A stretch of 64,000 nucleotides of DNA from Candidatus Portnoybacteria bacterium. GTDB taxonomy: Bacteria > Patescibacteriota > Minisyncoccia > Portnoybacterales > GWB1-42-6. Position numbers and translations under genes: made by a program. This document shows, piece after piece, positions 785 through 51,275 of the stretch. Location: positions 302,620 through 366,619 of the forward strand of contig JAQTYI010000001.1 in assembly GCA_028688325.1 (NCBI GenBank), in the 5' to 3' direction. A model generated the notes under the pieces. It was not told the DNA's origin and made no database searches. It saw only the letters and a program-made list of their open reading frames with translations. Every line of letters starts with the position of its first letter. Within the stretch, counting starts at the first letter, position 1.

Positions 785-1240
785 TTATTTGGGAATTATT
801 TTAATGCGCCGCTCTTCACCAACCCCCTCCGACTCTGTTTTAACTCCCGGAATATCCATCAGGGTTGTATGAATTATCCGCCTCTCATATGCATTCATGG
901 GCGGTAAATAACAGAAAGCTCCATGCTCGGCCACTTGGCGCGCTAAATTTTTTGCTGAATCCTTCAGTGTATCCAAGCGTTCCTGTTGATAATTATTCAC
1001 ATCCACCGTTAGGCGAACGCCCTCAATAATCTTCTTGCCGGCTAAAAGCCGGGCTAATTGCTGCAGAGCCCTAAGATTATCACCATTGCGGCCGATTAAA
1101 TATCCGGCTTCTTGGCTTTCTATATTAGCCAAAATGCCGCCACCGAGCTCTTCCGACAGCGACACGCGGCCGTCGACACCCACAACGCCGATCAGTCCCT
1201 CGATGACTTCTTTAATTGCCGTCAGTTTTTCTTGTTCCAT
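785..1240 (-). CDS. jag: Jag/KhpB R3H-domain RNA-binding protein (SpoIIIJ-associated)
   Basis: KH/R3H-like translation (GYLIGRNGDNLRALQQLARL...ERRIIHTTL). Sits downstream of yidC in the conserved rpmH-rnpA-yidD-yidC-jag origin cluster. Confidence 0.8.
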   Translation of the reverse strand: MEQEKLTAIKEVIEGLIGVVGVDGRVSLSEELGGGILANIESQEAGYLIGRNGDNLRALQQLARLLAGKKIIEGVRLTVDVNNYQQERLDTLKDSAKNLARQVAEHGAFCYLPPMNAYERRIIHTTLMDIPGVKTESEGVGEERRIKIIPK

Positions 1241-1370
1241 GCCAGGAAGTAGAAATTCAACTATATTTAATTTATCAAGATAAGTTAAATATAGTTAATT
1301 CACTTGTTTTTATAATTTTTGCCAGACAGTTCAAATAAAAATAAACTGTTGAATTTTCACTTCCTGGCGT
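1238..1370. mobile_element. MITE copy a. Terminal inverted repeats CATGCCAGGAAGTAGAAATTC / GAATTTTCACTTCCTGGCG flank about 90 bp of AT-rich core
   Basis: 22-bp terminal inverted repeats read directly. The jag ATG abuts the left repeat. The right repeat encodes the last codons ARK and the TGA stop of yidC. Confidence 0.8.
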
Positions 1371-2073
1371 GTTTTTTAATTACAAAATATTGTTGTATCA
1401 CTCCGGCCAAGGTCGTCACCACCCAATAAAGAGTGAGCCCGGCCGGCAAGCGCCAGGCGATAAAAACGGTGAAAAGCGGCATAAAATAAAGCATTTGCTT
1501 GTTAAGGGCGGCGCTGAAATCCGAGCCCTGGCCGGCCGCTGGCGGCTGGAAGCGGACCATCATTTTTGATTGCCAGAAAGTGAAAGCGCCGGCTAAAATA
1601 GCCAGCGCCACATTGGCATTAGCCAAACTTATCAACCCCAAAAACATCGGGTCCACCTGGCCTGGACTTGCGACAAAAGAATAAAGGGCATTTAAACTTT
1701 CGGGTTTTAATCCATTCAAAAAAACTTGATACAGCGCGATAAGAATGGGCAACTGTATCAAAAGCGGCAAACAACCGGAGGCCGGGTTGATGTTGTTTTT
1801 TTTATACAACTCCATCAGGGCTTGGGATTGCTTCACTTTGTCGGTTGAATATTTATTCTGGAGTTCTTTTATTTGGGGGGCGAGCGCCCCCAGGGATTTT
1901 TGTGAAGTAATGGCTTTTTGGTTCAATGGATACAGTATCAAGCGGATGATGACGGTAAGTAAAATTATTGCCACACCAAAATCGTGCGGCGGTATCGCGT
2001 TATATAAAAAAATAAGTCCGTTGAACAACGGCCGGTAAAGCACCTCATTAAACGCTATAGTGATGATATTCAT
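1357..2073 (-). CDS. yidC: Membrane protein insertase YidC (short Oxa1-type). The start was moved to the internal ATG so yidD is not overlapped
   Basis: Translation MNIITIAFNEVLYRPLF...AWRLPAGLTLYWVVTT... with a conserved YidC C-terminal region. Operon context. Confidence 0.85.
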   Translation of the reverse strand: MNIITIAFNEVLYRPLFNGLIFLYNAIPPHDFGVAIILLTVIIRLILYPLNQKAITSQKSLGALAPQIKELQNKYSTDKVKQSQALMELYKKNNINPASGCLPLLIQLPILIALYQVFLNGLKPESLNALYSFVASPGQVDPMFLGLISLANANVALAILAGAFTFWQSKMMVRFQPPAAGQGSDFSAALNKQMLYFMPLFTVFIAWRLPAGLTLYWVVTTLAGVIQQYFVIKKHARK

Positions 2074-6101: not shown

Positions 6102-8666
6102 TTATCGGTTTATATATACAATTGCTTTTGCCTCTTGTCGGTTAAAGGCCTGGTCATATACCCGCGCGGAGATGGTTGCTTGACCGTTGGGGATATTATC
6201 TTGAATCAAGGCGTTTATTTGGTAGGGGGCGGACATTGTTGATCCAATGAAGTTATCATTTAGAAAAAAATCCACCTGCCTGGCGCCCAGGGGCGCGGCT
6301 ACATCCGCCTGGATGAATATTTTCGATTGGGTGATGGTTTGGTAATTTACAGGAGCTATCATGTTGATCTTTGGCAGATTGACGGGCGAGCGAGAATTAT
6401 TCTGAGATGGAATGGTTTGACTCGCAATATTAAGCCCGTGCGAAACAAGCCATCTTTGCGCCGCGGCCTCCCAATTCTTGTATTGCTCATCATTGGCGGG
6501 GCTGGTCGGCGCATCGCCTTGCGGATTATCTTTTTGCACATAATAAAGGACGGAGTGGGCGCCAGTGATGGTTTTTTCTTCTACTATATCGGGCGGGGTT
6601 TGGTCCGTGGCGAGAGCCCCTGAAATTTTATCTATCTTAATGGTTTGAGCTGACAAATAAGAGCCATTAAGCATTGATTTATTAGTTTGGATCGGGTCGG
6701 GTTTGATGAATTGTTCGATATTTTTGGGCAGGCAAAAAGCATTAGCCGTTGAATTATCGCAGTTGGTTTTAAGCTTATAGGCCTTTTTTATAAAGTCGTG
6801 CCACAGCGGCCCGGCCGCGGCCAGCCCCGCCCCAGCGCGGGACATTGGGTCGTTGTTATTATTGCCAACCCAAACCCCAACCACCAATGACGGGGTGTAG
6901 CCGAGCGTCCAAGCATCGCGGTATTTTTGAGTGGTGCCGGTTTTGGCGGCTACCGGCCTGTCGGGAAAATATAAAGCGGAATTGGCGCCAAAGACCGGGG
7001 TGCGGGCATTGTTGTCGGATAATACATCCGAGATCAAGCGCGTGGTCTGCGGCTCAAGCACTTTTTCCGGTTGGGGTTTGTATTCCTCTAAAATATTGCC
7101 ATCTTTGTCTTCTATGTTCAGGATCGCCGTTTTTTCATTCTTGGTTCCATCGGCGGCAAAAACACCGTAAGCCGCCACTTCGTCCAATAGCTTCACTTCG
7201 CCGCCGCCCAGCACCAGCGACAAGCCATAATAATTGTCGTTTAAGGAAGTGATTCCCATAGCTTTGGCGGTTTTTATAGTATCTTCAATTCCAGCCAGAT
7301 ACAGTATTTCCACGGAAGGTATATTGAGTGATTGCGCCAAAGCTTCACGCGCGGTCAATGGCCCGCGGAATTTATCGTCGTAGTTTCCGGGGTGGTAGCA
7401 ATCCAGACCATATTGATCCTTCTCCTGGCTCGCGTCAGCGGGGCAATTGGGGTTGAACTCGGTTGGGACATCAAAAAGCACGGTATCGGCCGTGTAGCCC
7501 TTTTTAAAGGCCGTGGCATAGGCGAAAGGTTTAAAAGATGAACCGGGTTGGCGGTCGCGGATGGTCACATTAACATTGCCGTCATGGGCCGTATCAAAAT
7601 AATCATAAGAGCCGACCATAGTCAAAATTTGGCCGGTTTTGGGATCTATGGCTGTTAGGGCGGCGTTTCGCGCACCATATTTTTTCCAGTTGCTTTTGGC
7701 GCCGTCGCTTATTATCTGCTCGGCTGCTTGCTGCAGGTCCCAGTCCAGAGTGGTGTAAACCTTCAGGCCTTGTTTTTCAACGGCGTCCTGGCCATATTTA
7801 TTTTCTATGTATTCTTTGATATACATTACAAAATGCGGCGCCTTGATGCCGTGGGGGGCGGTGGAAAAATTCAGTGGTTCTTTTTTAGCGGCGGCGGCCT
7901 CTTCTTGGGCGATGTATCCGGTTTTAACCATGCGGTCCAGGACATATTCCTGGCGCGCTTTCAATTCTTCTGGATGAGAGCCGTAGGGCGAGAGGCGAGA
8001 GGGGGATTGAGGCAGCGCGGCCAGGAGGGCGCTTTCGACCAACGATAGGTCTTTGGCCGATTTATTGAAAAATGTCTGGCTGGCTGCTTCGATGCCGTAG
8101 GCGTTTGAGCCGTAAGGAACCTGGTTAAGATAGAGCGCCAATATCTCATCTTTGCCATAGCGCCTTTCAAGTTCCAGCGCCAGCACCGCCTCTTTTATCT
8201 TGCGCGTCAGAGAATATTCGTTGGTCAGGATGGAATTTTTTATGAATTGCTGGGTAATGGTTGAGCCACCGCCCGCGCTCCGATTTCTGGTAATGACTCC
8301 CAATGCCGCTCTGGCGATGCCTTTGAAGTCCAGTCCGAAGTGATTGTAAAAATTAGCGTCTTCGGTCGCGATCGTGGCTTTTTTCAGGTAATCGGATATT
8401 TGGTCGATGTTCACTATGGTTCGCTTTTCTTCGCCATGGATGTCATAAAGCAACACCTTGCCGGTGCGATCGTAAATTTTAGTGGATTGCGTGATTTGCC
8501 GTTCGTTTATATTATCGGGATTTGGCAGGTCTTTGGCGAAATAAAGAAAAGCCGCCAAACCAAAAACAACCCCGCAGATAAAAAGCCAAAGAACGAGCTT
8601 TAACAGGGGGCGCAAAAAACCCCAAGAACTTTTCTTATGAAAACGATAAAAAATACTTTTGCCCAT
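6102..8666 (-). CDS. Bifunctional class A penicillin-binding protein (PBP1A-type glycosyltransferase/transpeptidase)
   Basis: GT51 motifs (TITQQFIKN, RKIKEAVLALELE, LNQVPYG). Transpeptidase SSFKP (SxxK) and KTGTT. N-terminal transmembrane anchor. 854 aa. Confidence 0.9.
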   Translation of the reverse strand: MGKSIFYRFHKKSSWGFLRPLLKLVLWLFICGVVFGLAAFLYFAKDLPNPDNINERQITQSTKIYDRTGKVLLYDIHGEEKRTIVNIDQISDYLKKATIATEDANFYNHFGLDFKGIARAALGVITRNRSAGGGSTITQQFIKNSILTNEYSLTRKIKEAVLALELERRYGKDEILALYLNQVPYGSNAYGIEAASQTFFNKSAKDLSLVESALLAALPQSPSRLSPYGSHPEELKARQEYVLDRMVKTGYIAQEEAAAAKKEPLNFSTAPHGIKAPHFVMYIKEYIENKYGQDAVEKQGLKVYTTLDWDLQQAAEQIISDGAKSNWKKYGARNAALTAIDPKTGQILTMVGSYDYFDTAHDGNVNVTIRDRQPGSSFKPFAYATAFKKGYTADTVLFDVPTEFNPNCPADASQEKDQYGLDCYHPGNYDDKFRGPLTAREALAQSLNIPSVEILYLAGIEDTIKTAKAMGITSLNDNYYGLSLVLGGGEVKLLDEVAAYGVFAADGTKNEKTAILNIEDKDGNILEEYKPQPEKVLEPQTTRLISDVLSDNNARTPVFGANSALYFPDRPVAAKTGTTQKYRDAWTLGYTPSLVVGVWVGNNNNDPMSRAGAGLAAAGPLWHDFIKKAYKLKTNCDNSTANAFCLPKNIEQFIKPDPIQTNKSMLNGSYLSAQTIKIDKISGALATDQTPPDIVEEKTITGAHSVLYYVQKDNPQGDAPTSPANDEQYKNWEAAAQRWLVSHGLNIASQTIPSQNNSRSPVNLPKINMIAPVNYQTITQSKIFIQADVAAPLGARQVDFFLNDNFIGSTMSAPYQINALIQDNIPNGQATISARVYDQAFNRQEAKAIVYINR

Positions 8667-8735
8667 TGCCGCTATTATGGCAAAAAACAGCCAGTTTTAC
8701 AAGATTTTGCGGCCAAATCTGTCTTTTCGCCAAAA

Positions 8736-8770
8736 CAAAAATCCCCGATGGCGGGGATTTTTGTTTTTTA
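8736..8770. terminator. Hairpin plus T-run terminator
   Basis: AAAAATCCCCGATGGCGGGGATTTTTGTTTTTT. Confidence 0.6.
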
Positions 8771-8779
8771 TTAAAATCA

Positions 8780-8953
8780 TCATTCTATTTCCTCGCCCTC
8801 TTCGATGCCGTCATCTATCAGGTCATCGTCATCCACATCCAGATCGCTTTCCGTTTCGGTCTCTTCCGCCGAGTCGTCCATTGGGTCATCGGATGGATCG
8901 CTCTTTTTGGGATTCATATCATCTTCTTCGGGGTAAAAAAATTGATTCGTCAT
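8780..8953 (-). CDS. Putative small, highly acidic protein (57 aa)
   Basis: Hand translation MTNQFFYPEEDDMNPKKSDPSDDPMDDSAEETETESDLDVDDDDLIDDGIEEGEEIE*. Below the ORF-track size cutoff. No recognisable family. Confidence 0.3.
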   Translation of the reverse strand: MTNQFFYPEEDDMNPKKSDPSDDPMDDSAEETETESDLDVDDDDLIDDGIEEGEEIE

Positions 8954-13234: not shown

Positions 13235-13350
13235 GAAATGGCAAATGACTAATTTCCAATGACAAATAAAACCCCAAGCTTAAATGTCAAAAATTTATGA
13301 TTTGACATTCGGTCATTGGTCATTTATTTGTCATTAGTCATTGGGATTTC
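13235..13350. repeat. Family-4 AT-rich repeat array (AATGACAAAT, TTCCAATGAC and ATTGGTCATT dyads)
   Basis: Repeated GTCATT or AATGAC half-sites at roughly 7-11 bp spacing. The same motif architecture recurs at 21395-21530, 38650-38750 and 48893-48960. Confidence 0.6.
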
Positions 13351-13355
13351 GTCAT

Positions 13356-13562
13356 TTATAAGGTTTCCCACGGCATACCCGAAAAAATCCAGTAACCGAC
13401 AAAAATAAAAATCAAAGCCAAAACCGCGATAACGGCAATCGGCGTTTTATAATTTTGTCCCGGCATCTGATATTGGAACAAATGATAAACAACCGCGCCC
13501 AGGAATATGGTGGCGGTAAGCAAAATTATTAAGCCGATGAAGAGAGAAATAACAAAGAGCAT
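13356..13562 (-). CDS. Small two-transmembrane membrane protein
   Basis: 68 aa, strongly hydrophobic. Confidence 0.4.
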   Translation of the reverse strand: MLFVISLFIGLIILLTATIFLGAVVYHLFQYQMPGQNYKTPIAVIAVLALIFIFVGYWIFSGMPWETL

Positions 13563-15204: not shown

Positions 15205-15252
15205 AAATTGACTATGTAATACGGATTTTTACGGATATACGGATGATTTTTC

Positions 15253-15335
15253 CCCTCTTTTGTAAAGAGGGGTTAGGGGAGATTTAAAGCAGGGGTTCTA
15301 AATCCCTCCTAACCTCCCTTTACGGAAAGGGAGGA
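15253..15335. repeat. Family-2 GC-rich hairpin repeat (CCCCTCTTTTGTAAAGAGGGGTTAGGGGAG modules)
   Basis: Perfect hairpin CCCCTC-N9-GAGGGG followed by TTAGGGGAG. At least 11 copies in the window. Confidence 0.8.
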
Positions 15336-15645
15336 GAAAGCCCTTGACAAGCATTCCGTCCCGTGATAACATATCAAATCGTGTCCGAAAGCCCTCCTTC
15401 GCCCAGCCGCACAGCGGGGCTACGGGAGGACAAGCCCTTTTTAATTTGCAGGTGATGGGACCTTTTTTTATACTTGGTCTTGGCGGGGTTTTGTTTAAAT
15501 ATGTGGATGCCTTGGCTTTGGCTGGGACACTCCTTGGCGAAACTTTTAACCTTCCCCCCAGTGGGAAGATATTACCTGCAGATTAAAGAGGGGTTGTGGG
15601 GTTGGATTTAACTAACGGGGGTGTTCTTTAAGAAAGGAAGAGGAT

Positions 15646-15852: not shown

Positions 15853-15932
15853 GCTGTCTCTTCTGTTGGCGCTGAGCATAATGGGTTCGGCGCTTTTTTA
15901 TTTCCCAAAAATTTCAAAAGAAGCGGTTTTGT

Positions 15933-16033
15933 TCCCCTCTTTTGTAAAGAGGGGTTAGGGGAGATTTAGTGGATACAAGCGGTTAGAGTGTGTCCGCTTA
16001 AATTCACCCCAACCCCTCCTTTACAAAAGGAGG
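15933..16033. repeat. Family-2 repeat copy
   Basis: TTCCCCTCTTTTGTAAAGAGGGGTTAGGGGAGATTTAG ... CCCCTCCTTTACAAAAGGAGGG. Confidence 0.8.
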
Positions 16034-16063
16034 GAGTTATTTTCGTACCCTCATTATTTATAG

Positions 16064-17875: not shown

Positions 17876-18997
17876 TCAAGAAAGTGAATTTAGCAATACG
17901 GCTATTTTTTCCTTGGCATCTTTGGCGGCCATACCGGCCATTTTTACCAACAGGCGGTCGTTTTTAACGGAACCGCCGATCTCCAGGCATAGTTTTTGCA
18001 GATGCTCGGCTCTCTTGCTTTGTGCCAAGATATAAGTAGAGCCGTTATCGTCGGGCCACAAAATTATGGCCAGGTTGATTGAAGGAAAGAGGTCGTAGAT
18101 TTCGTCCAGAACGAACGGCAGGTCTTTGGCCGAAGTGCCGGTGGCGATAAAATCTTCGCGCTGGGCGAATATCCAGGCGATCTTTTCCCGATCGTCAAAT
18201 TCCAGGCGGCCCAAGAGCCGGCCCCAAAGCTTTAAGCAATTGAGCGGTTTGGTTTTGTATAGATTTTTAACGATGGTTTCTTGTTCCGCTCCCTTGATTA
18301 TCAAAAGCGACGCCAAATTCAGCGCTTGGGGAGTGGTTCGGGAATTTTGCCAGCTGTGCGTTTTAACGATGAGCCCCGCCAGCAGGAGCGTAGCAATATT
18401 GGCATCAATCGAATTTGGCGCGAGTCCCTCGATAAGTCCGACAACAATTTCCGCGCAGGCCGCGGCCGTCGGCTCGACCAAGTTCACTTCGCCGAAATAT
18501 TCATTGCCCGCCTTGCAATCGATGTTCAGGATGGATTTGTTGAAAAAAAGTTCGGTGTTGCTGTTAAAAATATCGCCCAGCGATTCCAGGTCCGGCGCGT
18601 CGATGACGATTATCAGGTCGTAGTAGAACGGGCCCGGTTCCAGCTTGATATCGCGCTGTTCTATTTTTTGCGGCGTGGCCAAAAATATTTTCAAGACGCT
18701 GCCTTCCGCTTCGTAGCGCAAGCGAGAAATCTTATTTTGGCTGGTATCCACGGAAATAACAAAATCGCGCAAAGAGGTCAGTTTATTTCTCAAGGCATCG
18801 ATGCCAGGCAGAAAGGCCAGCTTGTCCGGCGCGGCTTCCTGAGAGGCGAGTTCAACTTTTTTGCCGAGTTTTTTGAGAGTCGCTTCCAGCGCCAGAGCCG
18901 AGCCCAAAGAGTCGGCATTCAACGACTCAGGCAGAGCAATCAGGATATTTTTACTTTTCTGGATGAGGTCGATGGCTTGTTGAAGGGGGGTGAGCAT
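17876..18997 (-). CDS. DHH-family phosphoesterase (NrnA-like)
   Basis: NrnA-like N-terminus NILIALPESLNADSLGSALAL. DHH/DHHA1 architecture. 373 aa. Confidence 0.7.
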   Translation of the reverse strand: MLTPLQQAIDLIQKSKNILIALPESLNADSLGSALALEATLKKLGKKVELASQEAAPDKLAFLPGIDALRNKLTSLRDFVISVDTSQNKISRLRYEAEGSVLKIFLATPQKIEQRDIKLEPGPFYYDLIIVIDAPDLESLGDIFNSNTELFFNKSILNIDCKAGNEYFGEVNLVEPTAAACAEIVVGLIEGLAPNSIDANIATLLLAGLIVKTHSWQNSRTTPQALNLASLLIIKGAEQETIVKNLYKTKPLNCLKLWGRLLGRLEFDDREKIAWIFAQREDFIATGTSAKDLPFVLDEIYDLFPSINLAIILWPDDNGSTYILAQSKRAEHLQKLCLEIGGSVKNDRLLVKMAGMAAKDAKEKIAVLLNSLS

Positions 18998-19132
18998 ACC
19001 GGGTAGTAGAAATTTGACTTAATAATTAATTCCTGGATGGTTTATTAATTTCTATGCATTTACCGAGGTTGTAATAATTTGGCAGAATCTACATATAAAA
19101 AATAACCAGTCAAATTTTCACTACCCGGCATG
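18995..19132. mobile_element. MITE copy b
   Basis: Terminal inverted repeats CATACCGGGTAGTAGAAATTTGAC / GTCAAATTTTCACTACCCGGCATG. The left repeat abuts the DHH start codon. Confidence 0.8.
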
Positions 19133-20481: not shown

Positions 20482-20591
20482 TATTTGTTCACGAATAAAA
20501 ATGCTATACTATATAATAAAAGATATGTCGTTTAAATGTCAGTTAAAGCGTTGCACCCCCCTTGTAAAGGGGGGTGAGGGGGGTTAAAATC

Positions 20592-20873
20592 ATGTTTACG
20601 CAAGCTATAAAATTTATTCCTTACAATAAAAATTTAAGCGATAAAGCCGGTAAGTTAAGAAGCCATATGACAGCCGCCGAAAAGAAGTTGTGGTTCAATT
20701 TTCTGCGCGGATACAGATATCGGTTCGTCCGTCAAAAAGTCGTCGCGAACTATATTCTCGATTTTTATTGCCAAAAATTAAAATTGGGCGTTGAAATTGA
20801 CGGAGATTCGCATATTGGAGATAGCAATGAAGTTACGCAAATCATTGATGGGAAGGTAAACGAACAAATATAA
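20592..20873 (+). CDS. DUF559 endonuclease-domain protein (Vsr/restriction-endonuclease-like fold)
   Basis: AEKKLWFNFLRG...YRFVRQKVV...YILDFYCQKLKLGVEIDGDSH. Flanked on both sides by family-2 repeats. Confidence 0.6.
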   Translation: MFTQAIKFIPYNKNLSDKAGKLRSHMTAAEKKLWFNFLRGYRYRFVRQKVVANYILDFYCQKLKLGVEIDGDSHIGDSNEVTQIIDGKVNEQI

Positions 20874-20909: not shown

Positions 20910-21413
20910 ATGGATTTTATCACAAAAAACGCCGGCGAAACCCAATTGCTATCCGGTAAAATTTTAAAAGAATTAATGGCGCAACGGCGCCGCGTGGCGA
21001 GCGAAGCGAGTTTTACTCGGGGTGCGCTGGTTTTGGCGTTGCAAGGCGAGCTTGGCGCTGGTAAGACGACTTTTATCCAGGGTTTGGCGCAAGCACTGGG
21101 CATAAAAGAAAAGATATTGAGCCCGACATTCGTGATAATGAAACATTTTAAAATAGCGGCTAGCGACTGGCGCCCCTCGACTTCGCTCGGGGTAAAATTT
21201 AAGAATTTTTACCACATGGATTGTTATCGTCTGGAGGGCGGTAAGGACTTGGAAGCTTTTAATTTTAAAGAAATTTTAAAGAACAAAAATAACTTAGTGG
21301 TCATCGAATGGGCCGAACGCGTAAAAGATATCTTGCCCGAAGATACGATCTGGCTGGAATTTGAACACGGAGGAGAAGATATACGGAAAATCCTAATGAC
21401 TAATGACAAATGA
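20910..21413 (+). CDS. tsaE: tRNA threonylcarbamoyladenosine biosynthesis ATPase TsaE
   Basis: P-loop GELGAGKTTFIQG, SPTFV and HMDCYRL motifs. Carries an in-frame PSTSLG mini-repeat insertion. Confidence 0.8.
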   Translation: MDFITKNAGETQLLSGKILKELMAQRRRVASEASFTRGALVLALQGELGAGKTTFIQGLAQALGIKEKILSPTFVIMKHFKIAASDWRPSTSLGVKFKNFYHMDCYRLEGGKDLEAFNFKEILKNKNNLVVIEWAERVKDILPEDTIWLEFEHGGEDIRKILMTNDK

Positions 21414-21530
21414 CAAATCAATGTCAAAGCTCAGAATCCAAAAGAATTAATTTTTGACATTTGGATTTGGGATTTGATTGGTCATTGGAAATTGGTCATT
21501 TGAAAGTTAAGATAAGATGGGATTATAAAA
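21395..21530. repeat. Family-4 AT-rich repeat array upstream of polA
   Basis: AATGACAAATGACAAAT ... TTGGTCATTGGAAATTGGTCATTTG. Confidence 0.6.
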
Positions 21531-26769: not shown

Positions 26770-27027
26770 TTACTTGTTCAGCGCTTTCATCAGTCGGGAT
26801 TTTTTCCGAGCAGCGGCGTTCTTTTTAATAACGCCTCGTTTGGCCGCTTTATCGATGGCCTGATAAGCAACGGAAATCATTTTTTTAGCTTCGTCTTTCT
26901 TGCCGGCCAGCATCAATTTGCTGATTTGTTTGAGTGCGTCTTTCATTGTCTTTTGCCGCTTCACATTCAAAACGCGGCGTCTCTTGGCCTTGCGCAGTTC
27001 TTTCTTGGCTGATTCTTTGATTGGCAT
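26770..27027 (-). CDS. rpsT: 30S ribosomal protein S20
   Basis: MPIKESAKKELRKAKRRRVLNVKRQ... The 5' extension in the ORF track is a translation of the MITE terminal repeat. Confidence 0.85.
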   Translation of the reverse strand: MPIKESAKKELRKAKRRRVLNVKRQKTMKDALKQISKLMLAGKKDEAKKMISVAYQAIDKAAKRGVIKKNAAARKKSRLMKALNK

Positions 27028-27161
27028 ACCAGGTAGTAGAAATTCGGCTATATTCATAAATCCAGCGGATCTAATCAATCTTACCGATTTCTATGGTTTT
27101 ATAAAATTTTGTCAGACAATGATAATTTAGCTAAACAGCCGAATTTTCACTACCTGGCATG
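27025..27161. mobile_element. MITE copy c1
   Basis: CATACCAGGTAGTAGAAATTCGGC ... GCCGAATTTTCACTACCTGGCATG. The left repeat donates or abuts the rpsT ATG. Confidence 0.8.
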
Positions 27162-27240
27162 GTTTGGTTGTTGATTTATAATTATTTGTTTTCGGTTCAG
27201 AGGTTGAATAGAATATAGCAGATAAATTACTTTTTGGCAA

Positions 27241-27310
27241 GCCAGGAAGTGAAAATTCGGCAGTGACTTAATTTGCCGCCATGGCGGCAGCCGAATTTCT
27301 ACTTCCTGGC
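27241..27310. mobile_element. Mini-MITE copy c2 (two terminal repeats around a 26-bp palindromic core)
   Basis: GCCAGGAAGTGAAAATTCGGCAG / GCCGAATTTCTACTTCCTGGC. The right repeat encodes the last codons ARK and the TAG stop of uvrB. Confidence 0.75.
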
Positions 27311-29453
27311 AAGTTTTTTTAATTTGTCTATTTCTTCTTTCAGCCGCATGGACTCATCAAATTGCAGATTGCGGTTGGCCAGGTCCATTTTAAATTGCAG
27401 TTCGCGGATATATTCTTTGAGATAGTTCGTGTCCTCCGAAGCTTTAGCGAAGGAGGATCTGCCGGTTTTCACTTCCGCCAGAACTTCCACAATGCTTGCT
27501 CGAATATCCTTAGTTATGGCTTGTGGCGAGATGCGATGTTTTTTATTGTATTCTTCCTGTGTCTGGCGGCGGCGGTTGGTTTCATTGATGGCGCGGCGCA
27601 TCGATTGGGTTACCTTATCTGCATACAAGATTGCCTGGCCATCAAGGTGGCGCGAAGCGCGACCGATGGTCTGGATAAGAGTGGTTTCATTGCGCAAAAA
27701 TCCCTCTTTGTCCGCGTCCAGAATCGCCACGAGCGAAACTTCGGGCAAGTCCAGCCCTTCGCGCAAAAGATTTATGCCGACCAACACATCAAATTCTCCT
27801 TGGCGCAATTTTTTCAAGATTTCCGGCCTCTCCAGCGTCTTGACCTCTGAGTGCAGGTAAGCCGTCTTGATCTTTTCTTCTGTCAGATATTCGGCCAGAT
27901 CCTCGGCCATTCTTTTGGTGAGAGTCGTTACCAGCACCCGCTGTTTTTTTGCCACGCGTTTTTTGATCTCTTTAATGAGATCGGGGATCTGGTTCTGGCT
28001 GGGGCGGACATCGATTTTCGGGTCCAAAAGCCCCGTCGGACGGATGAGTTGTTCAATCACATATTTATTTGTCATCCCGGGTCACCCGCCTCGCCCGACG
28101 AGCGTGCGAGTCGAGGCGGGTGACCCGGGATCCAGATTTGGAAATTTGGGCCTGGATTCCCGCTTCCAGTTTACCCCGCACTTGATGCGGGGCGGGAATG
28201 ACAGAAGAGAAAGGTTTACAATTCACGGCTTGTGTTTTGGCGGTCTCGTATTTCCCCGGCGTGGCGGAGGTATAAATAACCTGGCTTATCTTTTTTTCAA
28301 ATTCCGGGAATTTCAGCGGCCGGTTATCCAGGGCGCTGGGCAAGCGGAAGCCAAAATCAATGAGCGTTTGTTTGCGCGAACGGTCGCCTTCATACATCGC
28401 GCCGATCTGGGGCACGCTCATATGCGACTCATCAATTATCATCAAGAAATCATTCGGATAATAATCCAGCAGGGTGGAGGGGGCGGTGCCGCCTTGGCGC
28501 AGTTCCAGGTGCCGGGAATAATTTTCAATGCCGTGGCAATAGCCGACTTCTTTTAACATTTCCAAATCATAATTGGTGCGCCGGCTCAGGCGCTCGGCTT
28601 CCAAACTTTTGCCATCTTTCCCCAATCTTTTTAATTGTTCGTCCAGTTCGGCACGGATGTTGGCGATGGACGCGTCTATTTTTTTCTGCGGCGAAACCCA
28701 AAATTTCGCCGGATATATCCTGGCGGAATTTATTTGCTCATCTTGTCCGGCAAAGATGTCTTTTAAGGATCGCAGGGGCTTTGCGCTGATGCGGGTTATT
28801 TTATGGGCTTCAAATTCGGCCTTAATTGTCAACTCGCCCGTGGCCAGCCATATCTCAACGATGTTGCCGCGCACCCGGTATGTGCTGCGTTTAAAATCAA
28901 TATCGGAGCGAGTATATTGCAATGCGGCCAGCTGGCGCAAAAAAACTTGCCGGGAAATTTCTTGGCCTTGTTTTATCTCCACGCTCAATCCCTGATAGTC
29001 ACCGGGCGAGCCGATGTTGTAGATGCAGGAAACCGACGCCACCACGATAGCGTCTTCGCGCGTCAGCAAAGATTGCGTGGCGGCATGGCGCAGCCGGTCC
29101 AGCTCCTCGTTTATCTTGGCGTCTTTTTGTATGTAGGTGTCAGTGGTGGGAATATATGCTTCCGGCTGGTAGTAGTCATAATAGGAGACGAAATAGTTTA
29201 CGGAATTATTTGGAAAGAATTCTTTGAATTCCTGGTATAATTGCGCGGCCAAGGTTTTGTTGTGAGAAATTATCAGCGTGGGCTTTTGCACTTTTTCAAT
29301 GACATTGGCCATAGTGAAAGTTTTGCCGCTGCCGGTCACGCCCAAAAGCACCTGGTGCTTGGCGCCGGCGTTCAGATTTTTGACTAATTTATTTATGGCG
29401 TTCGGCTGGTCGCCTGTCGGCTTGTATGGGGCGTGGATTTTGAATTGCGGCAT
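27299..29453 (-). CDS. uvrB: Excinuclease ABC subunit B (UvrB). Reading frame broken by a roughly 140-bp family-1 repeat at about 28068-28207, leaving two overlapping ORFs (27299-28075 and 28065-29453). Possible pseudogene or sequencing frameshift
   Basis: N-terminal ORF has helicase motifs [10 protein letters not shown] and DESH plus the beta-hairpin region. C-terminal ORF resumes at [13 protein letters not shown] and ends with the UvrB C-terminal coiled coil. The N-terminal ORF reads through the repeat and stops in a different frame. Confidence 0.8.
28068..28207. repeat. Family-1 repeat inserted inside uvrB
   Basis: TTGTCATCCCGGGTCACCCGCC...CCCGCACTTGATGCGGGGCGGGAATGACAGAAG. About 140 bp, not a multiple of three. 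Confidence 0.8.
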
Positions 29454-30158: not shown

Positions 30159-31343
30159 ATGGATAAACAAACTTGGAATAAATTTGTTTTAGAAAATGGT
30201 GGTAGCTTTTTGCAATCCTGGGAATGGGGCGAATTTCAAGAAAACATTGGCAGGCGTGTTTTTAGGTTTTTGCATTGTCATCCCGAATTTATTTCGGGAT
30301 CTGATTCAGAGGCCCTGAAACAAGTTCAGGGCGACAAAGGGGGCTGGCGAGCTCAATTCATTGCTAACAAACTACCTGGTGTTAATAAATTTTATTGGCA
30401 TTGTCCGCGCGGGCCGGTTTTGGCCAATGGCGATGAGCAAATGGCAAATAGCCAAATACGGAAAATCATAGACGCGGTTAAAAAATCAGCGGATAAAAAA
30501 GTTATATTTTTTCGTTTTGGGCCCGAGTGGCCTCTTGATTGTCATTCCGGGCTTGACCCGGAATCCAGATCTGGATCCCGCATCGAGTGCGGGATGACAG
30601 AAAAGGATTTAAAAAATATTGGCTTCAAGCAGCTATCATACGATATCGAGCCCTCACAAACGCAAATTTTAGATATTTCAAAAACCGAAGACGAATTGTT
30701 GGCGCAGATGCACGAAAAATGGCGCTACAATATCCGCCTGGCGCAGAAGAAGGGTGTGCAGATAAAATTCACGCAGTCAGAGTGCGTGAATTTTGAGTAT
30801 TATTTTGAGGAATTTTATCGGCTGGTGAGCCAAGGCACTTCGGAGCGCAACAATATCAAGCATCATCCGAAAGAATATTATAGAAAGCAGTTGAAAATTG
30901 GCGCTAAATCTCCCCTGACCCCTCTTTACGAAAGAGGGGAAGACCCTCCTTTTGTAAAGGAGGGCGAGGGAGGATTTAGAGAAACATTATTTGTGGCCGA
31001 ATATGAAGGCAAGGTTATTGCGGCAAATATTGTCGTGATCTTTGGCAATCGCGCCACTTATCTTCACGGCGCCACAAGCAGCGAGCATCGCGAAGTTATG
31101 GCGCCGCATCTTTTGCAATGGGAGCAGATAAAATATGCCAAAGCGCAGGGCTGTTCGGAATACGATTTCTGGGGAGTTGTGAACGAACACACCTTGGACA
31201 GACGCGGCAAATCCTGGGAGGGCTTCACTCGCTTCAAAAAGGGCTTTGGCGGTAAAGAAGCGAATTACATCGGTTATTGGGATTATCCATTTGACAAGAA
31301 GTGGTATTCGTTATATAGATTAGTGCAAAAGTTTAGGAGATAA
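30159..31343 (+). CDS. FemAB-family peptidoglycan bridge aminoacyltransferase-like protein, carrying two in-frame repeat insertions
   Basis: FemAB N-terminus (WNKFVLENGGSFLQSWEWGEFQ). Family-1 insert translated as DCHSGLDPESRSGSRIECGMTEKD. Family-2 insert translated as SPLTPLYERGEDPPFVKEGEGGFRE. Confidence 0.7.
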   Translation: MDKQTWNKFVLENGGSFLQSWEWGEFQENIGRRVFRFLHCHPEFISGSDSEALKQVQGDKGGWRAQFIANKLPGVNKFYWHCPRGPVLANGDEQMANSQIRKIIDAVKKSADKKVIFFRFGPEWPLDCHSGLDPESRSGSRIECGMTEKDLKNIGFKQLSYDIEPSQTQILDISKTEDELLAQMHEKWRYNIRLAQKKGVQIKFTQSECVNFEYYFEEFYRLVSQGTSERNNIKHHPKEYYRKQLKIGAKSPLTPLYERGEDPPFVKEGEGGFRETLFVAEYEGKVIAANIVVIFGNRATYLHGATSSEHREVMAPHLLQWEQIKYAKAQGCSEYDFWGVVNEHTLDRRGKSWEGFTRFKKGFGGKEANYIGYWDYPFDKKWYSLYRLVQKFRR

Positions 31344-31353
31344 TTCGCATGGT

Positions 31354-31474
31354 TTGTCATCCCGGGCTTGACCCGGGATCCAGAGCTTGTCCCCGCGAAA
31401 GCGGGGATCCATTGGGCCTGGATTCCCGCTTCCAGCTTACCCCGCACTTGATGCGGGTCGGGAATGATAGAAGT
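31354..31474. repeat. Family-1 repeat, intergenic
   Basis: TTGTCATCCCGGGCTTGACCCGGGATCCAG ... GGATTCCCGCTTCCAG...CGGGAATGATAGAAG. Confidence 0.8.
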
Positions 31475-31510
31475 ATATAATTTTATTGCAAAGGGTTAGG
31501 GGATAAAAAA

Positions 31511-32296: not shown

Positions 32297-33779
32297 AAAA
32301 CTGATTCCCGACAGGATGCTGAGCATCTATCATTTCAAATTGGCGCTTTTGGGGGCGCTGGTTTTTGGTTTCCCGAGTAGGAAATTGAGGGTTATTGGCG
32401 TGACGGGAACAAAAGGGAAGTCGACCGTGGTGATGTTGGCGGGGAAGATATTGCAGGAGAATATAACCTCACCCCAACCCTCTCCTTCAAAAGGAGAGGG
32501 GGAAGTTTTTAACCCCCCAACCCCCCTTTGCGTAAGGGGGGATGAAAACGGGGATTTTTGTGAAAGCGGGCAAGCCGAATTTGCCCCCCTTGTAAAGGGG
32601 GGCGCAGGGGGGTTAAAAAATGTCGGATGGATCTCTTCGCTCACGATAAACGACGGGAAAAATGAAACGATGAACCCCTATCATATGACGATGCCAGGCA
32701 GGTTTTTTATTCAAAAGACGCTGGCGCAGATGATAAAAAACGGCTGCGAATACGCGCTGGTTGAAGTGACCAGCGAAGGAATAAAACAGCACCGGCATCG
32801 CTTCATCAACTGGGCGGGCGCGGCGTTCACTAACCTCGCGGCTGAGCATTTGGAAGCGCACGGCGGGTTTGAAAATTACAGAAAAGCCAAAGAGAAACTA
32901 TTTGCCGCCGCGGCAAAAAATGAAGATAGTTTCGGGGTGTATAACCTGGATGATGAAAATGTCGGTGAGTTTTTGAAGTATGGGATCGCAAGAAAAATTG
33001 GATACGGAATTCTTAACCCCCCAACCCCCCTTTGCGTAAGGGGGGATGAAAACGGGGATTTTTGTGAAAGCGGGCAAGCCGAATTTATCGTAAAGGGGGG
33101 CGAAGAGGGGTTAAAGAATTTACGAATTTCCAATATTCAATTATCTGGCAGTGGCTCGGAATTTGTCATCAACGGCGTGGAATTTAAAACCAAATTCTTG
33201 GGTGAGTTCAATATTTATAACTGCGCCGCCGCCGCGGCTATCGGGCAGGTCTGCGGCGTGCCGCTAAAAGTTGCGGCGCAGGCGCTCGCAAAGATAAAAT
33301 CTATTCCGGGTCGATTGGAAATAATTGATGAGGGTCAGGATTTTACGGTCGTGGTTGATCTGGCGCACACGCCGGATTCTTTTGAACAAGTTTTCAGATT
33401 GTTCGGAGAGTTGAAGCAAAATAAAATCATCTCGGTTTTCGGCGCGGCCGGCGGCGGGCGCGATAAATGGAAGCGGCCGGAACTTGGCAGAATCGCCTCG
33501 GCTTATTCGGACCAGGTTTTTATTACCAATGAAGACCCGTATGAGGAGGACCCTCTTAAAATAGCGGATGAAATATTGGCCGGGTGCGATAAGAGTAAAA
33601 CCGACATAATCTTGGACCGCCGGCAGGCCATTGCCCGCGCCTTGTCTTTGGCGCGCAAGGGTGATATAGTTTTAATCCTCGGTAAAGGAACGGAACAAAC
33701 GATGGTTGCCAGCGATAAAAAATATGATTGGGATGACAGAAGGGTCGTTCGCGAGGAATTGAAAAAAATAGTTCATTAA
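32280..33779 (+). CDS. murE: Mur ligase family protein (MurE-like UDP-MurNAc-tripeptide synthetase) with two in-frame copies of a roughly 100-bp GC-rich repeat
   Basis: P-loop VIGVTGTKGKSTV. DLAHTPDS. C-terminal SVFGAAGGGRDKWKRPELGRIA...ITNEDPYEEDP. Both inserts translate to the identical stretch NPPTPLCVRGDENGDFCESGQAEF. Confidence 0.7.
   Translation: MKQLLKKLIPDRMLSIYHFKLALLGALVFGFPSRKLRVIGVTGTKGKSTVVMLAGKILQENITSPQPSPSKGEGEVFNPPTPLCVRGDENGDFCESGQAEFAPLVKGGAGGLKNVGWISSLTINDGKNETMNPYHMTMPGRFFIQKTLAQMIKNGCEYALVEVTSEGIKQHRHRFINWAGAAFTNLAAEHLEAHGGFENYRKAKEKLFAAAAKNEDSFGVYNLDDENVGEFLKYGIARKIGYGILNPPTPLCVRGDENGDFCESGQAEFIVKGGEEGLKNLRISNIQLSGSGSEFVINGVEFKTKFLGEFNIYNCAAAAAIGQVCGVPLKVAAQALAKIKSIPGRLEIIDEGQDFTVVVDLAHTPDSFEQVFRLFGELKQNKIISVFGAAGGGRDKWKRPELGRIASAYSDQVFITNEDPYEEDPLKIADEILAGCDKSKTDIILDRRQAIARALSLARKGDIVLILGKGTEQTMVASDKKYDWDDRRVVREELKKIVH
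32470..32630. repeat. Family-2b GC-rich repeat inside murE (copy 1)
   Basis: CCCCCCAACCCCCCTTTGCGTAAGGGGGGATGAAAACGGGGATTTTTGTGAAAGCGGGCAAGCCGAATTT... identical over about 70 nt to the copy at 33015-33115. Confidence 0.8.
33015..33115. repeat. Family-2b repeat inside murE (copy 2)
   Basis: Same sequence as copy 1. Confidence 0.8.
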
Positions 33780-35782: not shown

Positions 35783-35909
35783 AAGACCCTCCTTGTGGGT
35801 GGTATGGGTAGCTGATAAGAACTATATCTGATAGTTATATTATATCAAAACGCTATGAATATGTCAATAGTAGCGCTAAAATACCGGAAAGTGTATAATA
35901 TATCGGTAT

Positions 35910-36221
35910 GCCAGGTAGTAGAAATTCGACAGCGATTATGTTCTATTATGTTTATATTTTAGAGAGTTTAAAGAATAAGGAATTGTATGTCGGTTACACG
36001 GGTGATTTAAACAAGAGAATAAAAGAACATAATCGCGGATTGGTTTTTTCTACAAAACCATATCTGCCTTGGCTAATTATATTTTACGAGGCCTATAGGA
36101 GCGAAAAAGACGCCAGAAGGAGAGAGGCGTATTTAAAGACCAGCCAAGGCAGCAGATTGTTAAAAAGAATGCTTAAAGAATATTTTTATAATAAAGAATA
36201 AGTCGAATTTTCACTACCTGG
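35910..36221. mobile_element. Autonomous-looking member of the MITE family: terminal inverted repeats enclosing a GIY-YIG nuclease gene
   Basis: Left repeat GCCAGGTAGTAGAAATTCGACAGCG. Right repeat GTCGAATTTTCACTACCTGG. The same repeats as the non-coding MITE copies. Confidence 0.75.
35938..36201 (+). CDS. Small GIY-YIG nuclease family protein (87 aa) carried inside the repeat-flanked element
   Basis: MFYYVYILESLKNKELYVGYTGDLNKRIKEHNRG...R...AYLKT...LLKRML. GIY...YVG and catalytic R/E/N spacing. Confidence 0.75.
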   Translation: MFYYVYILESLKNKELYVGYTGDLNKRIKEHNRGLVFSTKPYLPWLIIFYEAYRSEKDARRREAYLKTSQGSRLLKRMLKEYFYNKE

Positions 36222-36348
36222 AATGAAAAACTACGCTTCAGCCAGGGCGGGAAGGGGCAAAACGACCTATCGCACGCCGAGCGTATTTAAATATCAGAAG
36301 TGCCGGAAGGTGGAGAAAATTAAAATGGTTAATAAAAATATTAAACAA

Positions 36349-36486
36349 TTGTCATCCCGGGCCTGACCCGGGATCCAGGCCCTGAAGCCCAACCGTCGCT
36401 AAAGCTTTGGCGAGGCAAGCAAGTTCAGGGCGACAAAAAACCTGGATTCTCCCCGCACTTGATGCGGGGCGGGAATGACAAAATGA
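36349..36486. repeat. Family-1 repeat ending inside the annotated 5' end of the next gene
   Basis: TTGTCATCCCGGGCCTGACCCGGGATCCAGG ... CCCCGCACTTGATGCGGGGCGGGAATGACAAAATGACAA. Confidence 0.8.
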
Positions 36487-37871: not shown

Positions 37872-37911
37872 TGGACTTAACCGTGTTTTTAAATTAAAAT
37901 AACATTATTAT

Positions 37912-38042
37912 GCCAGGCAGTGAAAATTCGGCAGTTTATACGGATTATCATTGGTTGGTAAAGATAGATAAAACTATAGAGTTTGGCATCATTAATTAAG
38001 TTCGTTGAATTTAATTAATATAGCCGAATTTCTACTGCCCGG
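37912..38042. mobile_element. MITE copy e (inverted orientation)
   Basis: GCCAGGCAGTGAAAATTCGGCAG ... GCCGAATTTCTACTGCCCGG, then T and the ATG of the downstream gene. Confidence 0.8.
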
Positions 38043-38043
38043 T

Positions 38044-38649
38044 ATGGAAGAAATAGCCAAAAGCCATTTGAAATACAAGATCTGCGTTTCGGGCGCGGCG
38101 CGCACGGATTGTTGCTCCGAAGATGCAATGGATAAGACCAAGGAATTGGGGCGCGAGATAGTGCGCCAGAACGGCATTGTGGTCACCGGCGCCACCACGG
38201 GGGCTCCCTACTGGGCGGCCATTGGCGCCAAAGAAGAGGGCGGTATTTCCATCGGATTCTCGCCCGCGTCTTCCGAGGCCGCGCATGTAAAAACATACCA
38301 CCTGCCCATAGATTATTTTGATATGATTGTTTACACGGGCTTTGAATATTCCGGCCGCAATTTGATATTGACCCGGGCGGCCGATGCGGTGGTCTTTGTC
38401 TGCGGGCGGCTGGGCACGCTGAATGAATTCACCATCGCCTTTGAAGATAAAAAGCCCATTGGCGTTCTGACGGGCACCGGCGGCATGGCCGACGAGATAA
38501 AAGAAATAGTGGCCAAAGGAAACCGCGGTCCGGGAAAAATCGTTTATAACGACAATCCGAAAGTTTTGGTGGAAAAAGTTATAGAAATGATAAAAAAAGA
38601 AAAGGACATCGAGGTTGAGTTTGGAACGGGCAAAGGAGGGGGAGAATAA
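38044..38649 (+). CDS. TIGR00725/LOG-like Rossmann-fold protein
   Basis: KICVSGAAR...GIVVTGATTG...GGISIGF...VVFVCGRLGTLNEF. The start codon abuts the MITE repeat. The extension the track places upstream is a translation of that repeat. Confidence 0.6.
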   Translation: MEEIAKSHLKYKICVSGAARTDCCSEDAMDKTKELGREIVRQNGIVVTGATTGAPYWAAIGAKEEGGISIGFSPASSEAAHVKTYHLPIDYFDMIVYTGFEYSGRNLILTRAADAVVFVCGRLGTLNEFTIAFEDKKPIGVLTGTGGMADEIKEIVAKGNRGPGKIVYNDNPKVLVEKVIEMIKKEKDIEVEFGTGKGGGE

Positions 38650-38750
38650 AAATAAATATCAAATGTCAAATTTCCAATGACTAAAAAATCCCGCAGAGCG
38701 GGATAGGATTGAAAATTGGTCATTGGGATTTGGAAATTTTTGAGAGGGGG
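38650..38750. repeat. Family-4 dyad repeat (TTTCCAATGAC ... GTCATTGGGATTTGGAAA) with a central GC hairpin
   Basis: Inverted CCAATGAC / GTCATTGG arms around TCCCGCAGAGCGGGA. Confidence 0.6.
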
Positions 38751-43929: not shown

Positions 43930-44010
43930 CTATTTGCCCCTCCCTTTTTAAAGGGAGGTTGGGAGGGATTTAAATCCACCCCCACCCCTCCTTTAAAAAG
44001 GAGGGAGAAA
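43930..44010. repeat. Family-2 repeat
   Basis: CCCCTCCCTTTTTAAAGGGAGGTTGGGAGGGATTTAAATCCACCCCCACCCCTCCTTTAAAAAGGAGGGAG. Confidence 0.8.
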
Positions 44011-50822: not shown

Positions 50823-51275
50823 TTATTCAATTTTTCCTCTCACCGCCCGCCGGATGCGCCGGTCCGATTCGCGCTTGCCGATGATATCCCGTTTGTCGAT
50901 GGTCCTTTTGCCGCGGCCCAGGGCGAACTCCAACTTGATTTTACCCGATTTATTATAAACCCGAATAGGCACCAAAGTCAACCCGGTCTGCTTCGTTGAG
51001 CCGATAAGCGAGCGGATCTCGTTCTTATGGAGCAGAAGCTTGCGCGAGCGGGTGGGGCTGTAGTCGGCCGGGACATTGCCCGCTTGGTAGGGGGCGATAG
51101 TGGCGTTTAACAGCCACGCTTCTTCGCCCTTGATGACCACAAAAACCCCTTGGAGCGAAATATGGCCCCCGCGCACGGATTTGACTTCTTGGCCGCTCAA
51201 AACCAGCCCTGCTTCGTAGGTTTCCAAAAAAGCGTAGTCATAGCTGGCTTGCCGGTTGAAAGCGTAGTCGGACAT
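50823..51275 (-). CDS. smpB: SsrA-binding protein SmpB
   Basis: ...IAPYQ...RKLLLHKNEI...TLVPIRVY...KIKLEFALGRGKR..DKR..., an SmpB signature. The ATG abuts the MITE repeat. Confidence 0.9.
   Translation of the reverse strand: MSDYAFNRQASYDYAFLETYEAGLVLSGQEVKSVRGGHISLQGVFVVIKGEEAWLLNATIAPYQAGNVPADYSPTRSRKLLLHKNEIRSLIGSTKQTGLTLVPIRVYNKSGKIKLEFALGRGKRTIDKRDIIGKRESDRRIRRAVRGKIE

Follow-up and report, generated by a model that had tools for sequence, protein, structure and literature searches.

Elements at gene starts and the duplication that flanks them

We analysed a 64,000-nucleotide stretch of a Candidatus Portnoybacteria genome (contig JAQTYI010000001.1, positions 302,620 to 366,619 of the forward strand; hereafter the window), in which short repeats with inverted ends lie directly against the starts of conserved genes. 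The genes concerned are jag, which lies beyond yidC, a DHH phosphoesterase gene, rpsT, a TIGR00725/LOG gene, a ThiI-like gene and smpB. The motif CTACCYGGYATG occurs with at most one mismatch at 12 sites in the window against 0.41 expected, a number reached in none of 100 shuffles. A mismatch-tolerant search with the 20-nt core located 17 arms, which pair into nine elements (E1 to E8 and E3b; Table 1), and neither an nhmmer profile nor the arm search returned a tenth element in the window. Every element is built on two mutually inverted 20-bp arms, the B arm (CCAGGTAGTGAAAATTCGAC) and the A arm (GTCGAATTTCTACTACCTGG), which are told apart by two central positions (...AGTGAAAATT... in the B arm versus ...AGTAGAAATT... 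in the A arm) and which are 78-95% complementary among the ~76- and ~135-bp window copies.

At six of the nine window copies the ATG adjacent to an arm is the start codon of a conserved gene, as the first-pass annotation of this DNA had proposed; the arm adjoining the gene is A for five of these genes and B for smpB. The accompanying statement that the N-termini fit their families holds for five of the proteins and needs qualifying for the sixth: ribosomal protein S20 aligns to its model over positions 1-84 of 84, and the alignments of the SmpB, ThiI-like, TIGR00725 and DHH proteins begin at model positions 1-13, whereas Jag covers model positions 57-201 only, its Jag_N domain being missing. 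The same initial methionine is found in 10 of 10 ThiI homologues, the window TIGR00725 protein has 201 amino acids, which is also the length of most among the 120 homologues listed, and for jag, the DHH gene and smpB the junction ATG is the earliest start codon downstream of the preceding stop. Orthologues share the same start codon and do not begin at a different, upstream one. Arms supply stop codons as well. The yidC stop (TGA, 1357-1359) lies inside the B arm of E1 (YidC C-terminus ...KKHARK*), and the stop of the uvrB C-terminal open reading frame (ORF; TAG, 27299-27301) comes from the A arm of E3b (C-terminus ...KKLARK*).

Copies beyond the window were collected by a pattern scan that took one genome per species and detected the element in many Patescibacteria assemblies, and an independent sample was drawn by an A-arm-only scan of metagenome contigs, which gave 120 further loci. 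The assemblies that contain the element carry the labels Parcubacteria GW2011_GWB1_40_14, Yanofsky-, Portnoy-, Moran- and Doudnabacteria, among others. When the four nucleotides outside each arm are read as a direct repeat, all four agree in 27 of 45 copies and three of four in another 15, whereas the inverted reading mostly gives agreement at two of four. Perfect 4-bp direct repeats flank 56 of the 78 mid-size copies of the independent sample, and per-position agreement of the outer four nucleotides reaches 103-115 of 128 copies. The duplicated 4-mer is N-ATG, mostly TATG, in about three quarters of copies (TATG/TATG 61 pairs, CATG/TATG 12, AATG/AATG 7, also GATG/GATG), and duplications that hold no ATG occur too (CAAG/CAAG, TAAG/TAAG, AAAA/AAAA, CTCA/CTCA, TATA/TATA and CACA/CACA).

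Filled and empty versions of the same site are found at two of the window genes. At the ThiI-like gene, an element-free locus (L241, 72% protein identity) reads ...gccatatttaaacCATGaaaaaaca where the window reads ...gccatatttaaacCATG, then E6, then TATGaaaaaaca; a second locus (L244) is likewise empty. At the TIGR00725 gene, three loci with 86-90% identity (L246, L248 and L249) are empty and read ...T ATG G.., and a fourth (L250) is filled at the same position as in the window. The element is thus polymorphic for presence and absence at orthologous sites. Since the empty sites already have an ATG and the 4-mers at the element ends are direct repeats, the host start codon was in place beforehand and insertion makes a second copy of it: the outer four nucleotides are a target-site duplication of the host's own start codon, which leaves one ATG at each end of the element and the gene start intact. 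The CAT/ATG triplet, taken earlier as part of the repeat consensus, belongs to it in appearance only, being duplicated target. A 3-bp duplication beside an element-borne T was considered and rejected, since the AATG/AATG, GATG/GATG and CAAG/CAAG pairs copy the first base too and pairs with A upstream and T downstream are almost absent.

The insertions are placed with great precision. Among 117 oriented mid-size copies, taken from the window and many other Patescibacteria contigs, the distance from the A arm to the ATG of a long ORF is exactly 1 nt in 84, with only 8 copies at other offsets between 0 and 60 nt, and the gene-facing arm is A in 85 copies and B in 5. The earlier suggestion that the repeat is aimed at translation starts is therefore borne out, and in single-nucleotide register. 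The starts themselves have an unusual context. Shine-Dalgarno sequences are scarce, as had been remarked from the window alone (GGAG or GAGG lies at -18 to -5 in ~15% of genes, and targeted genes have it in 4 of 86 cases), and the base before the ATG is T in 58% of window genes and in 49% of those at related loci, an initiation context that agrees with the TATG target favoured by the element.

Two further features of the duplications deserve mention. Where the upstream copy is CATG, the downstream, gene-side copy is TATG in 12 of 15 cases, E2, E3 and E6 of the window included, and C is ancestral at the ThiI-like gene, judging from its element-free orthologues; this asymmetry suggests either a biased change after insertion or a further mechanistic step. 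Neighbouring copies in tandem arrays have one 4-mer in common (L128), and head-to-tail pile-ups are present at L128 (1-430), in the window (51273-51545) and at L193 (~8530-8880), where the target regenerated beside an existing copy appears to have been re-used.

A long class that encodes a GIY-YIG nuclease

The spacing of paired arms defines three classes of element, at 40-90 bp (37 pairs), 120-160 bp (79 pairs) and 310-360 bp (10 pairs), with nominal sizes of ~76, ~135 and ~320 bp. The first two are non-coding and resemble transposable elements of the miniature inverted-repeat type (MITEs). The 76-bp class often shows CAAG/CTTG duplications in the final codons of genes (window 27238-27313; L134, L182, L185 and L231), and its target habit differs from that of the 135-bp class.

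The long class has arms identical to those of the smaller ones and carries a gene. All 11 complete long copies (ten from the scan and E4 of the window) encode the same GIY-YIG protein of 86-91 residues, with the consensus MFYYVYILxSxKNxxLYIGYTxDLxKRLxEHNRGLNFSTKPYxPWxLIHYEAYxNEKDAKRREKYLKTSQGSRLLKRMLKEYFY. The layout runs from a 4-bp duplicate through a 20-nt arm, 7 nt, the ORF from ATG to stop, and a second 20-nt arm to the other 4-bp duplicate, so the nuclease gene is the sole content of the element and its stop codon touches the second arm. Long copies are found in both polarities, whereas mid-size copies almost always have the A arm beside the gene.

The protein matches Pfam family PF01541 above the curated cut-off (E = 2e-16), and across 34 homologues the GIY-YIG catalytic residues Y4, Y6, G19, R27, H31 and E63 show no variation, and Y17 and E51 hardly any. 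Its close homologues number 602, and the taxon names given among those listed are almost all Patescibacteria. Between the long DNA copies the median dN is 0.19 and dS is saturated, for a dN/dS of ~0.1, which shows strong purifying selection on the ORF in every complete long copy except one with a frameshift (L160). The AlphaFold model (pLDDT 84.7) has the expected strand-helix layout and comprises the catalytic domain and one C-terminal helix, with no separate DNA-binding domain. By a profile search of solved structures and by Foldseek with the model, the nearest structures are UPF0213 proteins (1zg2, 1ywl), followed by the structure-specific endonuclease Slx1 (7cq2, 4xlg), the Foldseek E-values being 1.7e-4 for UPF0213, 6e-3 for Slx1 and ~2 for I-TevI.

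The position of the ORF relative to the duplicated start codon is itself regular. In 9 of 11 long copies the nuclease ORF starts 30 nt past the upstream duplicate ATG and in frame with it (in E4 the frame is open from the ATG at 35908), the intervening leader reading ATG CCA GGT AGT GAA AAT TCG ..., that is, ten codons for MPGSENSxxI ahead of MFYYVY. The ORF and the host gene point the same way in 10 of the 11, and the ORF's stop lies 20-21 nt ahead of the host ATG in 9. Long copies lie within operons, co-directional with their neighbours, and one preceding gene ends 4 nt before the duplicate ATG; TGTATAAT is located 8 nt upstream of the duplicate ATG of E4. This observed layout suggests that the long element borrows the start signals of its host. 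The upstream duplicate ATG would retain the host promoter and initiation context and read in frame into the nuclease, and the host gene would be re-initiated at the downstream ATG, 21 nt past the nuclease stop, an arrangement that may be described as a start-codon trap.

The same junctions mislead gene prediction. The arm-encoded leader is annotated as part of the protein in 33 of 60 database homologues, as MPGSENS or MPGSRNS according to the first arm, and host genes are overextended into the element by gene callers or longest-ORF logic, as in a 211-aa call for the 201-aa protein (L250, 1001-1636) and in TTG starts inside E3, E5 and E6 (window 26770-27078, 38005-38649 and 44419-45558). Together, starts called inside elements and arm-encoded leaders distort the annotation of these genomes systematically.

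In all copies taken together, most arm positions are 94-99% conserved. Where the arms vary they change together: matched double changes number 100, with 88 of these changes inside the 20-nt arms, over 22 scored positions, where ~32 would be expected. They include CCGGG/CCCGG, TCAGG/CCTGA and TTCAAC/GTTGAA, and arm variants co-change around the ORF too (TCAAG...CTTGA in L267). Such covariation fits recognition of both ends by one protein, or a requirement that the two arms pair. Modelled as single-stranded DNA, E3b folds with -26 kcal/mol (z = -7.9). By analogy with Slx1, an enzyme of this kind acting on an arm hairpin or cruciform is an attractive idea. The nuclease, together with host repair functions, would move all three classes via their common arms, and the non-coding derivatives would acquire the identical target choice in trans.

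Competing explanations

The account that we favour, and that we think probably right as a whole, is that these repeats are mobile elements of Patescibacteria which duplicate the host ATG, are driven by the nuclease and exploit the start codon as a trap. Its components do not stand equally firm. That the repeats are mobile elements duplicating the host ATG we hold with high confidence. That the GIY-YIG nuclease drives their mobility may be right, and we would put the chance at even or slightly better. The most specific proposal, that the ~311-bp unit is an autonomous DNA transposon evolved to land on start codons so that host signals express its nuclease, the smallest known and the first with a GIY-YIG mobility enzyme, with the 76- and 135-bp repeats as its miniature derivatives, is tentative and falls a little short of an even chance.

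Several observations count against this account. No GIY-YIG protein is known for strand transfer. Two sets of identical nuclease proteins (P0018 and P0014) each come from one locus across many samples, and there is no sign of very recent transposition of a long copy. Some long copies (L267) lie away from a gene start; the nuclease ORF is out of frame with the duplicate ATG in 2 of the 11, and chance alone could leave a 9-codon leader open. A simple duplication at a staggered cut would not lead one to expect the systematic pairing of an upstream CATG with a downstream TATG. Lastly, a position weight matrix over 20 nt on each side separates TATG at starts from other non-genic TATG only weakly (area under the curve 0.75).

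The best-surviving alternative, which we nevertheless consider unlikely, is that all classes are non-autonomous, that a conventional transposase encoded elsewhere acts on the arms, and that the GIY-YIG gene is a passenger or a selfish rider. Terminal inverted repeats with a fixed 4-bp duplication are typical of DDE cut-and-paste elements, GIY-YIG enzymes are known as hydrolytic nucleases rather than strand-transferases, and the single locus of each identical nuclease protein would suit a gene that is merely carried along. Against this, the 240 fetched loci (~1.6 Mb of element-rich sequence) contain no arm-bounded element longer than 400 bp with credible arms, the single candidate being a pair of weak arms in L235 that are separated by 4.6 kb. 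These loci showed no transposase either, and the sole ORF between arms is the GIY-YIG domain. Lone arms were considered as the ends of a longer autonomous element and were traced to mis-pairing of nested copies, to contig ends or to solo arms; no arm match was found in viral contigs and no HUH protein is present in the elements. In the long copies themselves the ORF fills the space between the arms tightly and nothing is left of the non-coding interior, their ORF is under strong purifying selection in all complete copies bar the frameshifted one, and the arm variants co-change in both arms around the ORF as they do elsewhere.

Distinctly less probable is survivorship, in which the element merely prefers TATG and, in a compact genome, only the insertions that spare genes persist. 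We reconstructed pre-insertion sequences (284 kb with 297 crude gene calls), which contain 1397 TATG in coding regions, 394 in non-genic sequence and 135 that consist of a start codon with T in front. The coding sites would presumably be purged of insertions, TATG start codons are common given the frequency of T before ATG (49-58% of genes), and insertions within the last codons of genes persist as well: about one third of off-start insertions lie there, the ORF then stopping at the TAG or TGA of the arm. Yet only ~25% of non-coding TATG are start codons, a ratio of ~3:1 in favour of the other non-genic sites, and insertions at TATG number 71 at starts against at most 6 elsewhere, 4-mers other than TATG predominating among insertions away from starts. 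Further, 84 of the 92 gene-proximal copies lie at exactly 1 nt, though the whole 5' untranslated region should be tolerated; because selection against gene disruption would accept any position in the 5' leader, selection alone cannot yield a single-nucleotide register. As to what else might guide insertion, there is no extended DNA target motif, conservation ending with the 4-mer, and targeting of leaderless promoters, with transcription starting at the A of the ATG, was rejected as too weak (TANNNT at -12 in 15% of targeted genes against ~4% background).

The view of the first-pass annotation, that the element carries its own ATG, perhaps together with promoter and leader, and equips the neighbouring gene with a start codon or a portable start-and-leader module, we now regard as very improbable. 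An ATG or CAT does stand at most element ends, gene-less ends included, the genome makes little use of Shine-Dalgarno sequences, and some mid-size copies contain an interior [CT]GG[CT]A with an AT-rich stretch directed at the gene (49 forward versus 17 reverse), the sole strand-biased motif that was found. The element-free orthologues of the ThiI-like and TIGR00725 genes, however, have C/T-ATG at the same codon, and the end 4-mers are direct repeats that vary with the site and at some sites are not ATG. An internal outward promoter in the mid-size copies was rejected, the best -10-like scores being equal on the two strands (4.42 versus 4.40), as are the counts of TGnTAnnnT (15 versus 15). Translational coupling through a short ORF from the upstream ATG of mid-size copies was rejected too, its stops varying from 9 to 30 codons among the window copies.

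Least probable is a non-mobile origin, in which a conserved structured RNA or a regulatory leader arose in situ upstream of many genes: the long RNA hairpin (in E5 -49.5 kcal/mol, z = -6.1, with both duplicate copies, AUG included, in the stem) and the covarying arms, highly conserved across candidate phyla, would suit it, but presence and absence at orthologous sites with clean 4-bp duplications, tandem arrays, copies in the 3' ends of genes and a protein-coding version do not, and a gathering-threshold Rfam scan of the window returned the transfer-messenger RNA (tmRNA) and tRNA only, E4 and E5 matching no family at E <= 1.

Related systems, neighbouring repeats and significance

By their anatomy (inverted ends, a fixed duplication, filled and empty sites) the short and mid-size copies are MITEs. 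They belong to no element family that we can name, having no DDE or HUH transposase, different arms and a 4-bp duplication. In the full-text literature searched, which leaves subscription-only papers outside it, neither a GIY-YIG element with inverted ends nor start-codon MITEs of bacteria of the Candidate Phyla Radiation are described; one paper names GIY-YIG solely as a horizontally transferred gene (PMC12455944). The unexpected result is the ~311-bp GIY-YIG candidate parent, a putative transposon of a kind absent from the literature searched.

The closest parallel in form is with the Correia elements of Neisseria, which are also of ~70-150 bp with terminal inverted repeats, a short duplication, many gene-adjacent copies and a longer relative with the same ends; both are probably co-transcribed as hairpins and are interlocked with neighbouring genes. 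The present elements differ in their 4-bp N-ATG duplication (TA in Correia elements), in arms (CCAGGTAGTGAAAATTCGAC) that appear unrelated to the 26-bp inverted-repeat consensus of Correia elements, in their start-codon register, in a GIY-YIG rather than a DDE relative and in their Patescibacteria hosts. Inverted ends, a 4-bp direct repeat and a loosely palindromic target (YATR here, YTAR for IS5) are shared with the IS5 group, IS1380 and IS701, but those are 1-2 kb long with a DDE transposase, and no such gene was found between the present arms.

On the side of the nuclease, free-standing GIY-YIG homing genes (T4 seg and relatives of I-TevI) are similar in being selfish nuclease genes that lie between host genes and are co-transcribed with them. 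They have, however, one cognate locus with a long target and a separate DNA-binding domain, and none of the inverted ends, duplications or miniature derivatives described here, whereas the present insertions are found at many unrelated genes and the protein is a bare catalytic domain, nearer to UPF0213 and Slx1 than to I-TevI. UPF0213/YhbQ and Slx1 are its nearest relatives in sequence and fold, and Slx1 cuts branched and hairpin DNA, an activity that would suit a substrate of paired arms; unlike the present gene, those are single-copy cellular genes without arms or duplications, and Slx1 has a RING domain and needs Slx4. The mycobacterial interspersed repetitive units (MIRUs) of Mycobacterium and the Rickettsia palindromic elements interlock with the translation signals of their neighbours, whether by overlap with stops and starts or through translation into protein, as the arms do here in providing stops to yidC (...HARK*) and uvrB (...LARK*). 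MIRUs are tandem minisatellites without inverted ends, the Rickettsia elements are in-frame insertions inside genes, and neither kind is known to have a link with start codons or with a nuclease gene. Elements derived from IS200/IS605 and the REP/RAYT system have subterminal hairpins, no duplication and an HUH (Y1) enzyme, unlike the terminal repeats and 4-bp duplication described here.

Three other kinds of repeat share the window with these elements (Table 1). Copies of the second family (TTGTCATCCCGGGCTTGACCCGGGATCCAG ... GCGGGGCGGGAATGACA) are inserted inside coding sequence and read as protein. In the ThiI-like gene they encode CHPGLDPGSS... and CHPELGSGS..., and homologues elsewhere have CHAELVSAS... 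at the same hot spots; these insertions account for the length of the window protein, 371 aa against ~310 aa. The uvrB gene (27299-29453, minus strand) consists of two overlapping ORFs, 28065-29453 for the N-terminal part and 27299-28075 for model positions 402-652, and the split, which coincides with a second-family insertion, is explicable as a frameshift, as a pseudogene or as a split gene. A 47-codon ORF (36223-36366, MKNYASARAGRGKTTYRTPSVFKYQKCRKVEK...) runs from the downstream duplicate ATG of E4 into another second-family copy and matches no family; the start of the RNase J-like beta-CASP gene is probably the ATG at 36493 rather than the TTG at 36459. The third family consists of GC-rich palindromic repeats (CCCCTCTTTTGTAAAGAGGGGTTAGGGGAGATTTA and variants) that are intergenic, with similar repeats in the orthologous spacers of relatives (L241, L248), and the fourth type (ATTGGTCATTGGAAATTGGTCATTT and its complement) usually forms inverted pairs 3' of genes. 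The smpB gene (50823-51275) has upstream of it a 545-bp spacer that is made up almost wholly of three repeats, E7, E8 and a second-family copy, and the tmRNA gene (50222-50610, 112.8 bits) lies directly downstream of smpB.

Table 1. Start-codon elements and other repeats in the window, with positions counted from its first nucleotide.
Feature	Positions	Strand	Target copies	A arm	B arm	Start codon at junction	Remarks
E1	1238-1371	-	1238-1241; 1368-1371	1242-1261	1348-1367	jag, 1240..1238 (-)	Mid-size, 134 bp; between yidC and jag; copy 1238-1241 holds the jag start codon
E2	18995-19132	-	18995-18998 (TATG, minus strand); 19129-19132 (CATG, upstream relic)	18999-19018	19109-19128	DHH phosphoesterase, 18997..18995 (-)	Mid-size; copy 18995-18998 holds the DHH start codon
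E3	27025-27161	-	27025-27028; 27158-27161 (CATG, relic)	27029-27048	27138-27157	rpsT, 27027..27025 (-)	Mid-size; copy 27025-27028 holds the rpsT start codon
E3b	27238-27313	+	CAAG/CAAG	27290-27309	27242-27261		Short, 76 bp; within the last codons of the uvrB C-terminal ORF
E4	35907-36225	+	35907-35910 (TATG); 36222-36225 (AATG)	35911-35930	36202-36221		Long coding element, 319 bp; 7-nt linker after the A arm, then GIY-YIG ORF 35938-36201 (87 aa)
E5	37909-38046	+	37909-37912 (upstream); 38043-38046 (downstream); TATG/TATG	38023-38042	37913-37932	TIGR00725/LOG, 38044 (+)	Mid-size
E6	44311-44445	+	44311-44314 (CATG, upstream); 44442-44445 (TATG, downstream)	44422-44441	44315-44334	ThiI-like, 44443 (+)	Mid-size
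E7	51273-51408	+	51273-51276; 51405-51408; CATA/CATA	51385-51404	51277-51296	smpB, 51275..51273 (-)	Mid-size, minority orientation; copy 51273-51276 holds the smpB start codon
E8	51414-51545	-					Degenerate mid-size, 5 bp from E7; arms 51418-51437 and 51522-51541; no gene start there
Second repeat family	28074-28213, 30269-30600, 31348-31480, 36349-36490, 41096-41130, 45135-45260, 45384-45458, 47826-47874, 51672-51746						
Third repeat family	15247-15340, 15929-16040, 20549-20595, 30904-30985, 32463-32623, 33010-33121, 43931-44013, 48368-48486						
Fourth repeat type	13236-13372, 21387-21516, 38654-38754, 48918-48957						

If the nuclease does drive mobility, the long element would represent a new enzymatic class for DNA transposition and a new lower bound on the size of autonomous elements, and small GIY-YIG proteins, a widespread family currently without a function, would gain one. 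Even if it does not, the elements offer a candidate tool, and a compact one, for insertion directed at start codons. For annotation the consequences are practical, since gene callers often place starts within the element or join the arm to the nuclease as an MPGSENS leader. The elements point to a low-cost parasite lifestyle in very compact genomes, and their start-codon precision, in genomes poor in Shine-Dalgarno sequences, is a natural probe of what marks the starts of translation or transcription in the Patescibacteria.

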